From Euglena gracilis (Eukaryota), in assembly GCA_039621445.1 (NCBI GenBank), contig CP154954.1, positions 44,929,847 through 44,993,846 of the forward strand: DNA of 64,000 bases. The letters are read 5' to 3'. Below are positions 26,758-55,658 of the stretch, in pieces. The position numbers and the translations under genes are program-made. Within the stretch, counting starts at the first letter, position 1. The number at the start of each line of letters is the position of its first letter. The notes beneath the pieces are model-generated. The model saw nothing but the letters and a program-made list of their open reading frames with translations, did no database searches and had not been told where the DNA came from.

Positions 26758-28030
26758 GTTGGTGGAGGTTGGCACGACTGACGAGGATTTTCTGTGCTGT
26801 GGTAAGGGTCATGGAGGAGTTTCAACCCATACAAAAATCGGGTCTCGAAAAAACAAAGAATATCTCGGCATTTTTCGTCCAACAAAATCAAATAAAAAAA
26901 ATGAGAATCACAAAAATACCCAAAATCCTTCAAAAGAAACCCTCGAAAACAACATGCAATGCAAATTCATTCATAATTACACCTAACGCCTGAAATTTTT
27001 GCATTCACACCGTATATTTTTGAACTTCCGGGCAATTTTTTTGCATTTTATCTCAAAATTTTGCACATGCCAACAATTTGTTTGCATTTTATCTCAAAAA
27101 TGTTTGCATTTTATTCCAAAAATATTTTGCCTTTGCTCCGAAAAAAATATTTTGCCTTTGCTTTCAGTTTTTTTTTTTCAATCATGTTCTTTTATGGGGC
27201 AAATATATTCACCAAAAGCTCGTTCTATAACGGAGGTTCGGCAGCCACCCCCCCCCCTGGTGGTCGGACCCCCTCGGCACGGCAAAATTGGGACCCGGGT
27301 CGCATGGCAATCAAAAATGAAAACAATGAAAATTGACAGGTTCCCCCTCACCATCCCAGTTACAACCCTTTGTTGTGGTTGCTCAGGGTTTTAAATGCAA
27401 GGTCAGATTTGGTCTGTTGATTCAAGTTGATACCAGGGAGGATGGGTGGTGAACAAGCCATTGCTTCTTGACCCCAGGAAACAATGGCGCTTTTTTGGCG
27501 TATGGATTTGACCCAAAATATGTCCCATTGGCAAAAGAGATTGCGCAAGTAGGACAGAATTTCGTGGTAAAAAAGGGGGGAGGGGAAACGTGAAATTTTT
27601 GTGGAAGAAAACCCCCAAAAAACAAAAAATAATTGTCCTCACCCCACCTTCCATTTGGACAACCAAACCCCTTTTTGTCACCTTCATACCCAAAAAATGG
27701 CCAAAAATTTTGTCCCCTAAAAAATAGTGCCCAAAATTGGTGCATTTCCACATCCAAAACAGAATTTTTTTGGGCCATTTTTTCAAAAATTTCCCAAAAT
27801 GTATCCCAAAAAAATGTGATGGTCAAGAAAATCCTAACAAAATTCCCTTTCAAAAATAAAAAAATGACCAATTTCGGACATAAAAATCACCCAAAAATGC
27901 CCATTTTTGGACCAAAAAGCTTTTTTTTTGTTCAAAAATGGCCCAAAAATGACCAAAAATAGCCACTTTTTTTGACCTGAAAATCACCGATTTCAGGATG
28001 CGTGCCGCCCTTCTCGTGATGGGATGCAAC

Positions 28031-28329
28031 CAGGCTTGTGCTTAGTCGGGTGCCTACCCCACGGGGGGGGGGGTGCTAGGGGCAGGCACCCCATAGCACC
28101 CGATCCGACCCCCCCGGGGGGGGGGGGTAGGGTTTTGGGGGGTGCCTGCCCCTAGCAGGCACCCCCCCTCCGACCCCGGCGCCGAAGGCCCGGAAAAGGC
28201 CATTTTCAATGAAAATTTTCTGAGTCCGGCCCGGACCCCTATCCCCCCCAGGGGGGGGTGCCTGCTAGGGGCAGGCACCCTACAGCACCCACCCCCCCTC
28301 CCCCCCCCCGGTCGGTAAGCACAAGCATG
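28031..28329. mobile_element. hAT-type MITE with perfect 8-bp TSD GATGCAAC
   Basis: TIR CAGGCTTGTGCTTA / TAAGCACAAGCATG; TSD at 28023-28030 and 28330-28337. Confidence 0.9.
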
Positions 28330-28950
28330 GATGCAACATCATGGATGCAGCCTCCCGATCCAAAATGACCCCCCCGTGACCCCCCCCGTGACCCCCCCGT
28401 GACCCGCACCACCCCCAAAATTTCACAGAATGCCGAATGATAGTCAATGTTTTCATTTTAAACACTCAATTTTTTGAGTTTTTTTTTAATTTTTTTTTTA
28501 CATCTGTCTCGGGAGGGTTGGAAGTGGGGGGGAGGGGGGGTCCCAGGAATGGGGGGGTTGGAACTGTACAGGGGGGGGGTCCCAAGGTTTGACCAACTGT
28601 ACTGCCTTGTCTCCAATGGTGTGGTTTGTAAGCAATGGTATGGTCTGGATGGAGATGTCCAGCTCGAAGGTAGAATGGGCAGAAGGCTGTATTTTGATGT
28701 TTGAAATTTCACAAAACCTGTTTTGAATATCGGAGTGCTGCATTTTGGGGGGAGGAAAAAGGCCAGCAAAACATGGCCAGAAGCCACAAGAGAAAATTTG
28801 TCATAAAATTTCATCTTTACAAAGAAACAAACACGGAATCATACGCGGACTTTCACCATGCCCCCCCATATAAGACCCCCCCTTGGATTTTGGCTCCCGA
28901 GGGAGGTCTTATATGGGAGGGGCATGGTATTCATCAGGAAGCCTGCCAGC

Positions 28951-29043
28951 AAGGGGCCAATGCAGGCAGCCCCCTCCCTCCCGTCCATCACGACGCTCCC
29001 TGATCAATTTGACTGGCGGGCAGCGGTGCTGGACCAATCGGGG
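28951..29043 (+). CDS. Gene A exon: start of mature papain domain
   Basis: KGPMQAAPSLPSITTLPDQFDWRAAVLDQSG; the next intron has ACA-CAGCACAGGGC pairing with GCCCTATGCTG-GTGCC. Confidence 0.85.
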
Positions 29044-30642
29044 ACACAGCACAGGGCAAACTACTTTCCTCTCTTTTGGATTGCCGAGGACAATAGTCTT
29101 CCACTGTCGCTGACGGCTCCCATTCAAGGGTTCCGGGGGAGCGTAATTGGGGAGGAACCTGTACACATTTTTTGTTGTTAGGTTGTTAAGGAGTATAAAA
29201 CGATCGCAGCAGTGGATGTGAATTTGGCCACAAGGTGGTCACGAAGGGGTCCTCAGGGGGTGGGGCACTGTTTTCAAAATCACCCATTCTATTCAAAAAA
29301 AATGAAACCCACAATGGCAGGCATTAATTTGCAATTTGGCGTTGTAAAGGAAAAGGGATCTTGTTATTTTGGTTCTGGGAGGTCTGCCCCCAAGACGAGG
29401 CCCAGGGCCGAGTAAATAAAAAAAAATGACGCCAAAAATAGTTTGTGTGGGGGGAATTTGGGGGGGGTGGAGGTATGCAACTTCTTGTCATTTGTAGAGC
29501 AATTTTGCTGTGCAATTTCCAAAAAAAATGGAAAGGAAAAATATGGGAAAAATGCGGGTTTTACCAAATTATTCATTATGATGAAAAACGTGCAAATTAT
29601 GCCAAAAATGTCATTTTTCAACATTTTGGTTTGTGTACCCCCCCCCTCATGTGGAAATGGGGGTTTCGATATGCTATTTGGCTGATTATGTTGCAAAAAA
29701 TGGTGCAGTGGAGCCCCTACTGCACATTTTTGGAGTAACCCTGCCTCCCACCCCAATAATGATATACCCGGGGGGGGGGTATATTGTTTGGGCAATTTTT
29801 TCAAATTCAAACAGACCTGCCCAAAGGGCACATTTTTACATAATCTTTTCCCACATTTTTGACACTTTGTTTTAGCACTTTTTTTGCACATTCCATGTTT
29901 TGAGAGATGCAGTCGGGGGACCCCGGATCCCCAAGGGGGTGGTTCGGGTCACGGGGGGGGGTCACACATTTTCATCACACATCACACACGGGGGGGAACA
30001 CCACATTTTTGGTGGCAAAATTAGGGATCGCCGAACCTGAATTTTTGGGGAAAAAATCCAAAAATTAGGAATCCCCACACCTGAAATTAGGATTTTGACA
30101 CCAAATTAGAAATCACCAAGCCCAAATTTGAAAAATCTACGTCTCAAAACTAGGAATCTGCCTGAGAATTTTATCGAATTTGGCATCCCTGGCCAAAAAT
30201 TTTCCCTACAAAATTTCGCCGAAAAGGGTCCTTGTTCGGATCACCGGGGGGGGGGGGGTCACGGGGGGGGGTCATGGGGGGAACACCCCCCAAGGGGAGA
30301 TGTCCAGCCAGTGGATTTTTTTTTGAAGTGGCTGATAAAGTATAAAATGGCTAACTAGTGGACCCCCCCCGGCACTTTTCTGGAACACAAATTCAAGAAA
30401 ATTCAGCCGAGACACTTCAAAATTGTGTCAGATCTTCTTCCCAGCCATGGCTTCGAATGTTTTCCCCTATGCAATATGAGAGATCCAATTCTGGGTGTGG
30501 CAACAACAAGGGGGGGGGCACCTTTTTTGCAGTATTTCTGGCAATTTTCAACCTGTGTTGGGAAAAAAATTCGTTCAAAAAATACGCATTTCGGACTATT
30601 TTCCCCCTTGTGACCTCACTGGCCGAGCCCTATGCTGGTGCC

Positions 30643-53856: not shown

Positions 53857-54059
53857 GTATGCGCTCTCTGCCCCACCACAGAGAAACCTCATTTGGTTTT
53901 CATCACGAGTACGGGGCATTTGTTTTGTGGCAGGCATTTGGACGCCACCGTGTTTCCGAGAGGAATGACACTAGCACGACGAAGCCAGGGACCCATCCCA
54001 TACCGCGCGGCGGGAGGCCATTTGGTGGCACAGCCAGAACCTGCCGCTGTCTTCCACAG

Positions 54060-54094
54060 GGGACGCCAGCTCCCTCCACTGCCAGGCTCGCTCC
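54060..54094 (+). CDS. Gene B exon 12
   Basis: [12 protein letters not shown]; the next intron has a perfect 10-bp stem CAGGGCCACC / GGTGGCCCTG. Confidence 0.7.
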
Positions 54095-54864
54095 GTGCAG
54101 GGCCACCTCCGCTGGCCCTCAGGCCAACTGTCCGCACTCATTGGCGTGGGGCTGATTGCAAGGGAATCTATGGTCTTCCTCCTTTCCTGTTGGTTGTGTG
54201 TGTGTGTGTGTGTGTGTGTGTGTGTGTGCGTGCGCGCGCGCGCGCGTGCGTGCGTGCGTGCGTGCGTGCGTGCGTGCGTGCGTGCGTGCGTGCGTACAGG
54301 TAACTCCCGAAATCAAGTCCTGACCAGGGCTTCACCACATGCACACATAGATATAGATATAGATATAGACATAGATAATAATTATGTCTAATAACACACA
54401 TACATGGTGCATGCACGCACAAATACATACACACATGTGCACCACCGTAGCCTTCACCAGCTTCTTTCACTTCTTTCAGCTAGCTGGCCCTGGCCCTAGC
54501 AGACCCCCCCCCCCGGCAGTCACTGGCCAAATTTGGACTAGCTGCAGTCCAGCCCTCGGGGGGGGGGGGGGAGGTGGCTTAAAGCAACAGCCTGCTGTGA
54601 ATGTGTGAGATGTGCCACCAGTCCGGAGGGGTGGAGATAAAACTGCCCTGGCATCCTGGCAGGGACGCAGACGCATACCGCTCACCCATTCACCCACCTT
54701 GGCACACAGCGCCCTTGTTTTCCAGTCGGGGGGGGCTCCCAGACCCCTCCCCAGTGGGTCTAGCTGGTGCTTTTTTTTTCCCCCAATGGCCAGGTCCAGC
54801 AAAACGACCATCCTGATCCATCCACAGATAGGGTTCCGTGCGGCTGGCCGGTGGCCCTGAGCCT

Positions 54865-54948
54865 GGGACGACGACCGACGGCTCCACGGACGGCCCGGCG
54901 GGGGACGCGAAGGAGCCCATGCCGCTGTGGGGCCGGGTGGACGCCGCT
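54865..54948 (+). CDS. Gene B exon 13 (low-complexity extension)
   Basis: GTTTDGSTDGPAGDAKEPMPLWGRVDAA, in frame; next stem CAGGCCGTC / GGCGGCCTG. Confidence 0.7.
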
Positions 54949-55658
54949 GGCCAGGCCGTCCGCGGCGGCGACGGGAGGTGGGATTGGCGGGACGGGGGAA
55001 CGGGTGAGGGCGTGGGTCGCTGTGTTCTGACGTGAGACGGTTTGCCGGGGCCGCTCAATACTTGGACAGGAAACAAACGGACGTCCCCAAGGTGGAGGAT
55101 TTTGTACTGGGGGGGTTGCTGGAACAGGTCAGTGTTAAAACAGGGCTGAGGGGCAGAGCCTTTGCTGACCCCGAAGTCTTGAAGCACGTCATCCCCCCCT
55201 GGTTGGTTGCCAAAGCGCTTGCAACAAAGTTTAAAGTTTGTTGCGTGAAATGAACACAGAAAGCCTTCATTCGCAAGGGCAATGAATGGGCGACAATGAA
55301 CACGTTGGAAAGTGAATGAAATTTTGGAAAATGTAATTAAATTCTGGGCAAATATGAACGGTGCGTGAAACCGGTTTCTGTCCAGTCCCAACTGAAGAGG
55401 CCAAGGCCGAAGCTGGGCTTTGCAGAAGAAGCAACCTCATCTTTGCTGAACAAGAGACACACGTCCCGGGAGTAAGACACACACACACAGAAAATGAATT
55501 CCAAAGACAGCCATGAAATGAGGCCTGTGTCACGGATTTGGCCTTCAGCAAATGCAGCACAGCCGGGACAGGCTGCCCCATGTGAACCGCTCCGGCCGTA
55601 TATTTTGGCTCGAGTGGACCATGTCCGCCCGCTCAGAAGCCCCCGGCGGCCTGCCCGG

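Follow-up and report, generated by a model that had tools for sequence, protein, structure and literature searches.

Elements with inverted ends and 8-bp target-site duplications, and nonconventional introns of matching length, in a 64-kb euglenid window

Introduction

In total length, an inverted-repeat element plus one 8-bp target-site duplication (TSD) fits every RNA-defined nonconventional intron in the stretch of DNA analysed here (the window, 64 kb). One of these introns, intron 7 of a papain-family gene (gene A), is, judged by its sequence, a copy from a MITE family whose second copy has a perfect 8-bp TSD. The preliminary description had noted that the geometry of MITEs and of nonconventional introns is the same; this observation is confirmed, and its interpretation as a transposon-to-intron system is partly supported. 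We consider it fairly probable that TSD-flanked elements with CAG...CTG ends become nonconventional introns.

A MITE origin has been proposed for euglenid nonconventional introns (PMC3935182, PMC11282704), although the first of these sources states that transposable elements had not yet been identified in euglenids at that time, and a later source describes the origins of these introns as still unclear (PMC12501133). An intron gained within E. agilis has been reported to carry eight-nucleotide direct repeats (PMC4770533). Earlier publications already contain the proposal of a MITE origin, the N3/N5 code and the 8-nt repeat of a recently gained intron; what is new is the intron 7 core as a MITE-family copy, with flanks agreeing at 7/8 positions and missing in the tandem paralog. 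Our literature search found no paper that equates the 3+5 spacers with the length of the TSD.

Gene A and its introns

Twelve introns of gene A are defined by transcript contigs of three studies (X1, X2, X8), with joints between 46679 and 55659 (Table 1). One of them is GT-AG and 11 are non-GT-AG. A putative further intron (intron 0) is placed upstream from frame continuity and from an X2 contig block beginning at 46604, which has 68 nt further upstream. Raw RNA support consists of one X21 read at each of three joints (50662>51359, 51467>52292 and 52330>52900), and the joint of intron 7 is carried by three contig runs in addition to its raw read. Two pieces of the exons match Peptidase_C1, one with E=1e-6 and the other with E=4.9e-11.

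The RNA nature of X1, X2 and X8 is presumed, many of the contigs lie on repeats, and the reads were apparently cut at homopolymers. The joints could thus be artefacts of misassembled contigs or of DNA from other gene copies, and the repeats could stem from assembly errors in G/C homopolymers. Such an origin is extremely unlikely, since contigs from up to three studies agree on the 12 joints, raw RNA-seq reads cover three of these, and the joined exons give a single open frame with Peptidase_C1 on two pieces and an alignment to the paralog.

Table 1. Genes, introns and elements of the window (positions counted from its first letter).
Feature	Positions	Strand	Description
Gene A, papain family (Peptidase_C1)	46094..55800	+	spliced frame open across all 13 joints; 3' end provisional
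Intron 0, inferred	46162..46603	+	442 nt; junction repeat GGCAGACC 8 nt; core CAC...GTG 46169-46602
Intron 1	46680..46824	+	core CGG...CCG 46683-46819 + 8 nt; 13-bp stem; flanks 5/8
Intron 2	46903..47748	+	core CAG...CTG 46908-47745 + 8 nt; flanks 4/8
Intron 3 (GT..GC)	47842..50004	+	core CTG...CTG 47845-49999 + 8 nt; contains nested 48044-49602
Intron 4	50110..50407	+	core CAGGGA...TCCCTG 50113-50402 + 3+5 nt; flanks 0/8; missing in gene B
Intron 5	50458..50548	+	core CAAGG...CCTTG 50462-50544 + 8 nt; variant motif
Intron 6	50663..51358	+	junction repeat CTGCCCGG 8 nt; core CGG...CCG 50668-51355 + 8 nt; flanks 6/8; missing in gene B
Intron 7	51468..52291 (leftmost placement)	+	824 nt = TIR element 51477-52292 (816 nt) + 8 nt; missing in gene B
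Intron 8	52331..52899	+	core CAG...CTG 52335-52895 + 8 nt; gene B intron after same codons (QAYTG)
Intron 9	52935..53704	+	core CAGGGC...GCCCTG 52939-53700 + 8 nt; missing in gene B
Intron 10	53857..54059	+	GT-AG; sole conventional intron
Intron 11 (GT..CT)	54095..54864	+	10-bp stem CAGGGCCACC/GGTGGCCCTG 54098-54859 + 3+5 nt
Intron 12	54949..55658	+	core CAGGCCGTC...GGCGGCCTG 54952-55653 + 3+5 nt; flanks 5/8
Gene B-specific intron	34688..35723	+	from protein homology; core CAG 34691...CTG 35718 (1028 nt) + 8 nt; join restores ...LLRNSWGKGWGE...; flanks 2/8
3.8-kb non-coding element	14961..18756	.	perfect 22-nt TIR CAGGGCTGGATAGA...; adjacent 7-nt repeat CACACTC; contains composite 15742-17893
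299-bp MITE	28031..28329	.	ends CAGGCTTGTGCT...AAGCATG; TSD GATGCAAC 8/8; within gene B intron
303-bp MITE	32374..32676	.	ends CAGGCTTCGTTTCAAG...AAGCCTG; flanks 6/8 (GTACAATA/GTACAGTG); within gene B intron
290-bp MITE	36966..37255	.	perfect 16-nt TIR CAGGCTTCTTTTTAAG; TSD CCTCTTCC 8/8
436-bp MITE	45002..45437	.	ends CAGGCATTTGCTTA...TAAGCAAAAGCCTG; TSD TTGGGGGG 8/8; upstream of gene A
1559-bp non-autonomous element	48044..49602	.	14/14 TIR CAGACCTCCATTTA; subterminal repeats; TSD ACCCCCCC; nested in intron 3
127-bp MITE	60938..61064	.	ends CAGGGTTTGATATA...TATATCGAACCCTG; TSD AGCATGGG 8/8; TIR family of intron 7
266-bp MITE	63077..63342	.	28031 family, 81.5% over 271 aligned columns; flanks TGTTGTTG both sides

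Core and spacer geometry

All 11 RNA-defined non-GT-AG introns have a length equal to a helix-bounded core (C-N-N...N-N-G) plus exactly 8 nt. Eight of them agree in motif and spacing with the published code N3-CDG...CHG-N5|R, and the 3+5 placement can be reached by sliding in ten. The exception is intron 7, in which this placement needs a shift of 6 where the allowed slide is 5; its joint requires a 4+4 split, unless the RNA sources depart from the assembly by a C/A difference at 51473. The earlier claim of an inverted repeat with 3 nt on the left and 5 nt on the right holds throughout as core plus 8 nt; in its strict form it does not cover intron 7 as placed. In the 3+5 placement, a purine occupies exon position +1, after the 5-nt spacer, in 12/12 cores, that of intron 0 included. 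The 3+5 geometry had been established earlier by genetics, with knock-ins giving the code 5'-N3CDG-/-CH'GN5-6|R, and 69.1% of nonconventional introns have been called "slidable" (PMC12501133).

Elements with 8-bp duplications

Perfect 8-bp TSDs are found in the window at no fewer than six elements with CA...TG ends. In all six the TIRs agree at 12-14 of 14 positions, and five start with CAG and end in CTG or ATG. The ends and perfect TSDs described previously for the elements at 28031, 36966, 48044 and 63077 stand, but they cannot all be called free, because intron 3 of gene A contains the 48044 element and gene B has those at 28031 and 32374 within its introns. The TSD of the 48044 element is low-complexity sequence, and the flank repeat of the 63077 element is weakly informative because it is located in a GTT microsatellite.

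A scan independent of the element ends, for identical 8-mers 40-4000 nt apart with a TIR of at least 11/14, gave 23 matches, many of them repeat arrays or low-complexity sequence, against 0-1 in each of five block-shuffled controls. The clean additions are 45002-45437, 60938-61064 and the composite 15742-17893 (TSD CCGAAAAG). The element at 14961-18756 (CAGGG...CCCTG) departs from the rule, as its flank repeat is 7 nt and not 8 nt. The RNA of 60938-61064 is predicted to fold into a hairpin, in which the C of CAG and the G of CUG form the outermost pair of the element.

Sequence relation of intron 7 to a MITE family

CCGCCGTC and CCGCAGTC, matching at 7/8 positions, flank the core of intron 7 (51477-52292). 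When both strands of the window are searched, the 5' 35-mer of this core finds its best non-self match at the 5' terminus of the MITE at 60938 (28/35; next best 23), and its 3' 25-mer matches the 3' end of the same MITE (21/25), with no other site reaching 18. The core is also recovered alongside the MITEs by a scan for CA..TG ends with a TSD of at least 7/8 and a TIR of at least 10/14, run on the unshuffled window.

Gene B is a tandem paralog, and its alignment with gene A is gapless at the places where gene A has introns 4, 6, 7 and 9. Insertion in gene A, and not precise loss in gene B, would explain this difference. The gapless alignment would also follow from precise intron loss in gene B.

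The relationship could also run in reverse, with introns as the mobile units and the "MITEs" as intron-derived copies outside exons. Excised circular intron RNA could be reverse-transcribed and re-inserted, or DNA copies could be mobilised by a host nuclease. Excised nonconventional introns are described as circular RNA with full-length ends in a 2024 review (PMC11282704). Also, intron 7 and the 60938 copy have only their termini in common (about 35 and 25 nt), which is the part required for splicing. We nevertheless regard this direction as distinctly improbable. The 8-bp duplications abut the inverted repeats, perfect TIRs reach 16-22 nt, subterminal repeats are present and a composite has an outer TSD; abutting TSDs, long TIRs, subterminal repeats and TSD-bounded composites are marks of a DNA transposase. 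Copying through RNA would leave out any sequence beyond the intron, and it would include the 3+5 spacer nucleotides, which are not the same in intron 7 as in the 60938 copy.

Flank identity and the remaining introns

Across the 12 nonconventional introns, intron 0 included, 51/96 flank positions are identical in the 8-nt register, compared with 38.8 +/- 4.0 when the downstream flanks are shuffled among introns (P=0.002); without intron 0 the count is 44/88 (P=0.017). Sliding the downstream flank by 1-4 nt leaves only 25-35/96 identical. The excess over the permuted background is modest. Preferences that the introns have in common at single positions (a G at intron +1, a purine at exon +1) supply part of the raw identity and bring the background up to 0.39 per position. 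Introns 4, 5, 8 and 11 do not exceed the permuted background (about 3.1/8), and the gene A-specific introns, with flank matches of 0, 6, 7 and 4 of 8 against a mean of 4.25, have flanks no better than the remainder.

The match counts given earlier for TSD-like relics at 51474 (7/8), 50665 (6/8, with a junction repeat of 8 nt in another register), 46680 and 54949 (5/8 each) are borne out. At 46167 the 8-nt repeat exists but is offset by one, so that the core register gives 7/8 rather than 8/8, and the recount at 46905 is 4/8 instead of 5/8. Several flanks stand at background, with 0-4/8.

A family relation to a MITE within the 64-kb window was found for one of the 12 nonconventional introns; the other 11 have none there, their stems being short (5-13 bp) and their sequences unrelated. 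The claim that MITEs act as introners is exemplified by intron 7, a MITE-family member missing in the paralog, and not by the other 11. The families named for this role (CAGGCTT..., CAGACC...) were not found to form introns; the family link seen is that of the 60938 TIRs.

Intron 7 may instead be a one-off capture, in which a MITE fitted the splicing code by luck. Most nonconventional introns would then have arisen otherwise (for example by staggered double-strand-break repair or from mutated conventional introns), and 3+5=8 would agree with the TSD length by coincidence. The 11 introns unrelated to any repeat family of the window and the several flanks at background identity would agree with this. 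The 8-nt repeats of a newly gained intron have been ascribed to double-strand-break repair (PMC4770533), and interconversion of conventional and nonconventional introns has been proposed (PMC3935182). On the other hand, the 8-nt total is common to elements and introns, and so are the CAG...CTG ends on which the machinery depends; the flank-identity excess is confined to the 8-nt register, and a window of 64 kb offers very little sequence in which to find family members. We consider such a capture unlikely.

A proposed path from transposon to intron

For the reading of transposons as a source of introns, the following path may be proposed. In a euglenid-type nuclear genome, non-autonomous cut-and-paste elements with CAG...CTG ends and 8-bp TSDs coexist with nonconventional introns built alike. 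The nonconventional splicing machinery recognises the terminal helix into which the inverted ends pair; its cuts lie 3 nt upstream of the CAG at the 5' end and 5 nt downstream of the CTG at the 3' end, as is known from published genetics. An insertion in an exon would therefore take 8 nt along when it is removed, which is the length of one TSD, and the mRNA would again be as it was before the insertion. A transposon landing in an exon could thus be an intron immediately, and the remaining introns may be older, decayed copies. The observation is real, its interpretation is partly supported, and it merits a genome-wide test.

Comparison with known systems

hAT elements have a terminal consensus, with CAGGG as the Ac-type end, and a TSD consensus of nTnnnnAn. 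The elements here resemble hAT MITEs in their 8-bp TSDs, in their short TIRs starting with CAG and, at 48044, in subterminal repeats, but the nTnnnnAn consensus is not evident in seven TSDs. P and some Mutator-like elements likewise make 8-bp TSDs, as does Merlin, and this length is not exclusive to hAT. No transposase domain was matched by Pfam in 20 long ORFs of the window (0 matches), nor a hAT transposase, BED or dimerisation domain. The hAT assignment made earlier is unproven, as the window yielded no transposase, and any superfamily given to the transposase behind the elements is putative. Merlin elements have been reported in E. gracilis, where both families make 8-bp TSDs; they are alike in this and in their euglenid occurrence, but Merlin TIRs are stated to end in 5'-GG (PMC8101967), whereas the elements here have CAG or CA directly at the TSD.

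The introners of Micromonas, dinoflagellates and Fritillaria borealis are also non-autonomous transposons with TIRs and TSDs that become introns on insertion, and the TSD contributes to their exact excision (PMC11282704). They differ in being removed by the spliceosome, with splice sites from the element or the TSD (PMC11282704), whereas removal here follows a helix-measuring, apparently non-spliceosomal published code; and only two related copies (intron 7 and 60938) are seen in the 64-kb window. Compared with the published euglenid introns, elements with TIRs, 8-bp TSDs and the same ends here adjoin the introns, one intron belongs to such a family, and the lengths of the two spacers sum to that of the TSD.

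Introns of Gene A

The splice joints of gene A, a papain-family gene at 46094–55800 on the forward strand, have been mapped within positions 36501–56500 using contigs from three runs of three studies, for which an RNA origin is only a guess, together with a sample (about 5%) of the reads of one raw RNA-seq run. Among the joints listed, 12 lie between 46679 and 55659, and three joints, 51467>52292 among them, are backed by one raw read each. Eleven of the 12 lack GT-AG borders, while one intron is GT-AG. The joined exons of gene A give a single open frame from a signal-peptide-like Met at 46103, and two of its exon pieces match Peptidase_C1 (E = 1e-6 and 4.9e-11). 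We infer a 13th intron at 46162–46603 (intron 0), because a contig block of X2, one of the three contig runs, begins at 46604 and has another 68 nt before it, GGCAGACC occurs at both 46162 and 46604, and the frame is continuous. The joint of intron 0 is not among the 15 listed.

We will use the term “core” to define the helix-bounded part of an intron (C-N-N...N-N-G). The ends pair in all 11 non-GT-AG introns, and the outer C-N-N...N-N-G pair leaves exactly 8 intron nucleotides outside the core. Within the ambiguity of the contigs, 10 of the 11 can be slid to a 3+5 placement, with 3 nt on the left of the core and 5 nt on the right. A stricter fit, in which CDG at +4 to +6 pairs with CHG at −8 to −6 with spacers of 3 and 5(–6) nt, is seen in eight of the 11. 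The exceptions are intron 3 (CTG/CTG), intron 5 (CAA/TTG), and intron 7, which has the right motif in a 4+4 placement. When the introns are placed at 3+5, the downstream exon begins with a purine for each of the 12 cores, intron 0 included (10 G and 2 A). This geometry was known before the present analysis. The 3+5 spacing given in the preliminary description is correct and is the same as the code 5'-N3CDG-/-CH'GN5-6|R, which Nomura et al. (PMC12501133) defined through knock-ins. On account of this code, the window is regarded as euglenid-type.

Terminal Inverted Repeat Elements and Their Duplications

The four MITEs on which the transposon-to-intron proposal was built (28031, 36966, 48044, and 63077, named by their start positions) are all present. 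Further elements have been obtained with an end-agnostic scan, which looks for identical 8-mers 40–4000 nt apart whose inner borders are complementary at 11 or more of 14 positions.

Elements with terminal inverted repeats (TIRs) and their target-site duplications (TSDs)
Feature	Positions	TSD	Remarks
MITE	28031–28329	GATGCAAC	
MITE	36966–37255	CCTCTTCC	perfect 16-nt TIR
Element	48044–49602	ACCCCCCC	
MITE	63077–63342		flanks match, but within GTT microsatellite
Element	45002–45437	TTGGGGGG	end-agnostic scan
Element	60938–61064	AGCATGGG	end-agnostic scan
Composite	15742–17893	CCGAAAAG	end-agnostic scan

The scan gave 23 matches in the window, where G+C ranges from 0.42 to 0.64, compared with 0–1 in five block-shuffled controls; a good part of these matches consists of tandem arrays or runs of A/T. 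It also returned repeats of 7, 9, and 10 nt, so the scan alone does not pick out a length of 8. Six elements in the window combine an 8/8 TSD with a TIR matching at 12–14 of 14 positions. Five CAG-ended elements have clean 8-nt duplications, while the element at 32374–32676 has 6/8, and that at 14961–18756, also CAG-ended, combines a perfect TIR of 22 nt with a repeat of 7 nt. Seven CAGGCTTC-type ends occur in the window, and the element at 28031–28329 ends in ATG.

These elements have the traits of MITEs. Their TIRs are directly flanked by a TSD of fixed length, an arrangement in which the core of intron 7 scores 7/8 for the flanks and 10/14 for the TIR. Related copies are found at unrelated sites, with 81.5% identity over 271 aligned columns between the elements at 28031 and 63077. 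The elements, 127–1559 bp long, have no coding capacity. No Pfam family matches any of 20 long ORFs tested in the window, those of 14961–18756 included, and no transposase has been identified among them. The termini of two element families, used as search patterns against metagenomes, gave no matches for either.

Several of the elements have a more complex structure. The composite consists of two direct copies (15742–16177 and 17477–17893; 91.6% identical) of a TIR element of ~430 bp with the ends CATAGCTGGCG...GCCAGCTATG. It is nested in 14961–18756, and a single 8-bp duplication surrounds both copies, as would be expected had the outer ends moved as one unit. At each end, the 1.56-kb element at 48044 carries arrays of a ~33-nt subterminal repeat (ATGTATCAC...). 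The contig runs contain its interior in great abundance, with a summed word depth of up to 2367 in X1 (another of the three), and the family is therefore numerous or highly transcribed. Single CAGGCTTCTTTTT-type ends, a left one at 45637 and a right one at 59770, have no identified partner and may be truncated copies. Long G/C homopolymer blocks are found in the CAGGCTT-type MITEs (36979–37074 and 45330–45360) and in intron 6 (51186–51208). Reads and contigs break at these blocks, and contigs jump between them (joints 51208>37216 and 51208>45321).

Identity of the Intron Flanks

If an intron is an inserted element plus one TSD copy, as had been proposed, the 8 nt before each core should resemble the 8 nt after it. 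Over 12 cores of gene A (96 positions), 51 positions are identical, compared with 38.8 ± 4.0 when the flanks are permuted between introns (P = 0.002). Leaving out intron 0 gives 44 of 88 (P = 0.017). When the downstream flank is shifted by 1–4 nt, 25–35 of 96 positions agree. The background per position is 0.39 from the permuted flanks and 0.29 from neighbouring registers, the latter being too low because G prevails at both intron +1 and exon +1. Under the duplication model, both of these nucleotides correspond to TSD position 6, so a common G is expected, and the permutation test may be conservative.

The signal is real, specific to the register, and modest. It comes mainly from introns 0, 6, and 7, while introns 4, 5, 8, and 11 do not rise above background. 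The predicted excess over control flanks thus exists in gene A, but it is small and several introns do not take part in it. A perfect 8-nt repeat, CTGCCCGG, is found at the junctions of intron 6 (50663–50670 and 51359–51366). It lies 3 nt off the register of the CGG...CCG core and thus shares bases with the 5' strand of the helix. Either the ends of the original element lie 3 nt further in, or the repeat is due to chance.

Intron 7 and Its MITE Relative

A second scan, for CA...TG ends with flanks of at least 7/8 and a TIR of at least 10/14, was run without a shuffled control and lists the core of intron 7 (51477–52292; flanks CCGCCGTC/CCGCAGTC) alongside the MITEs. The 5' end of intron 7 matches that of 60938–61064, a 127-bp element with a perfect duplication, at 28 of 35 positions, while the next best among all positions on both strands of the window is 23. 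At the 3' ends the match is 21 of 25, and no other site in the window reaches 18. The 14-mer CAGGGTTCGATATA, with up to three mismatches, has six matches against 2.97 expected, a count that is not significant; the longer ungapped comparison is the informative one. The two copies have unrelated flanks, and therefore the likeness is not a segmental duplication. The RNA of 60938–61064 is predicted to form a hairpin in which CAG and CUG provide the outermost pair of the element, with the C of the former and the G of the latter. The opposite direction of descent, in which the mobile copies derive from introns, is considered quite unlikely.

Intron 7 is 824 nt long and its element 816 nt; 8 nt are thus removed from the RNA along with the element. 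The contigs have A at 51473, the sole position at which the flank copies (51468–51476 and 52292–52300) differ, the upstream flank having C. Taken as they stand, the contigs would place the cut of intron 7 at 4+4 or further left, not at 3+5, and in the 4+4 placement the downstream exon begins with A. Nomura et al. (PMC12501133) found that splicing of their test intron was abolished when the 5' spacer was altered by 1 nt. Either intron 7 is cut differently, or the strains from which the RNA came have A at 51473.

Self-BLAST of the window found no second copy of any whole intron, and the repeats were mostly simple. When all 24 intron ends were compared with the window by blastn-short, the matches beyond intron 7 and 60938 were short and G/C-rich or at chance level; an end of intron 12 has a 14-nt match at 33657–33670, without a partner end. 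The expected kinship between intron ends and MITE families is thus seen in the window for intron 7 but for no other intron. We consider a one-off capture of an element, with the 8 nt a coincidence, unlikely, though less so than descent of the mobile copies from introns. Reading frames across the junctions left by deleting MITEs (60938, 36966, and others) are long and open everywhere, including in the control, because G+C-rich DNA gives long frames throughout; they say nothing about an exonic location of the MITEs.

Introns of the Tandem Paralog

A search by tblastn with the spliced gene A protein identified a second papain-family gene, gene B, at 25.3–35.8 kb (25322–35815). The two genes are in tandem, both on the forward strand. 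Gene B aligns without gaps over the positions of gene A introns 4, 6, 7, and 9, and the intron after QAYTG is common to both. At the place of the gene B intron 34688–35723, gene A is continuous. This is the only gene B intron used here, since the exact borders of most others are not fixable by homology alone. It consists, by homology, of a CAG...CTG core plus 8 nt, and its flanks agree at only 2/8.

Intron positions therefore differ strongly between the paralogs, with four of gene A missing in gene B, at least one of gene B missing in gene A, and one in common. The simplest reading of the absence of intron 7 from gene B is insertion after the gene duplication, the other possibility being a precise loss in gene B. 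Judged from the sequence, intron 7 is a family member with a near-intact duplication, missing in one of two tandem paralogs. The canonical active-site motif, CGSCW, is kept in gene B (30652–30777). Gene A has QGQCAASWAF there, and its catalytic Cys appears to have been replaced by Ser. Gene A is nevertheless expressed and spliced.

Proposed Mechanism

The observations of the preliminary description hold overall, with small corrections. Its interpretation, that a MITE plus its TSD equals an intron, gains from the case of intron 7, which it had not noticed, but is supported only in part. In the proposed mechanism, TIR elements ending in CAG...CTG insert with 8-bp duplications, as seen in the window. 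The nonconventional machinery, which according to published work depends on a CAG/CTG helix and sets its cuts at distances of 3 and 5 nt, would then excise an exonic element together with one duplication length and restore the mRNA, as the arithmetic and one example suggest. Exonic insertions with a purine at TSD position 6 would be retained by selection; this position is G in the duplication of 60938–61064 and T in that of 36966–37255. The intronic duplication halves and the inner TIR would decay over time, until short stems and weakly matching flanks remain, as in most introns. On balance, we favour this mechanism as a whole, and regard an artefact behind the joints and repeats as very improbable.

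A broader proposal is that most nonconventional introns, the prevailing kind in Euglena genes, are relics of one class of transposons with 8-bp TSDs, that splicing is an RNA-level “undo” of integration, and that the 8-bp staggered cut fixed the 3- and 5-nt distances or evolved together with them. This is put forward tentatively, as rather less probable than the mechanism itself. If true, every exonic insertion of such an element would be erased from the mRNA, and TSD position 6 would supply the purine with which the exon has to begin, accounting for the prevalence of G at intron +1 and exon +1.

Comparison with Known Systems

Throughout the literature of 2013–2025, as far as the available texts extend, the origin of euglenid nonconventional introns is called open. 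The MITE-origin idea comes from Milanowski et al. (PMC3935182), who pointed out that transposable elements had not been identified in euglenids at that time. It is repeated as an open question in PMC6221363, recurs in PMC12621601, and appears again in the accessible sections of PMC12501133, where the origins are still described as unclear and nonconventional introns make up 71.8% of Euglena agilis introns. TSD-like repeats are mentioned in PMC11282704, in the available passages without a length or a family. Eight-nucleotide direct repeats at an intron gained within E. agilis are described in the excerpted text of PMC4770533 and ascribed to double-strand-break repair. They are an independent observation that fits an 8-bp duplication. 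The full texts searched include no paper with CAG/CTG-ended, 8-bp-TSD MITEs in a euglenid and none equating N3+N5 with a TSD. Junction-repeat lengths bearing on the 8-nt link may be given in supplementary tables of the Euglena papers.

As described in the available part of PMC8101967, the Merlin elements of Euglena gracilis have 8-bp TSDs and TIRs ending in 5'-GG, whereas the elements of the window have CAG, CAT, or CAC beside the TSD and so differ from that superfamily. They share the 8-bp TSD of the hAT superfamily, one related-looking element having 7 nt, and no autonomous partner with a BED finger, a hAT dimerisation domain, and the same TIRs is seen among the 20 long ORFs tested in the window. 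The introns of gene A resemble the euglenid nonconventional introns in their removal without GT-AG borders (11 of the 12 listed joints), in the spacing of the core, and in the purine at the exon start.

The window provides pieces that had been missing, namely resident families with intron-like ends, an 8-bp duplication equal to the sum of the spacers, and one intron as a family member. An argument from resemblance thereby becomes countable on any euglenid assembly with RNA-seq, and a knock-in test is possible in an existing assay. Transposon-derived introns as such are known elsewhere; what is new here is removal by a non-GT-AG, helix-measuring code whose distances sum to the duplication length. 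If the link is general, host RNA processing would neutralise a whole class of transposons and thereby allow introns to multiply.
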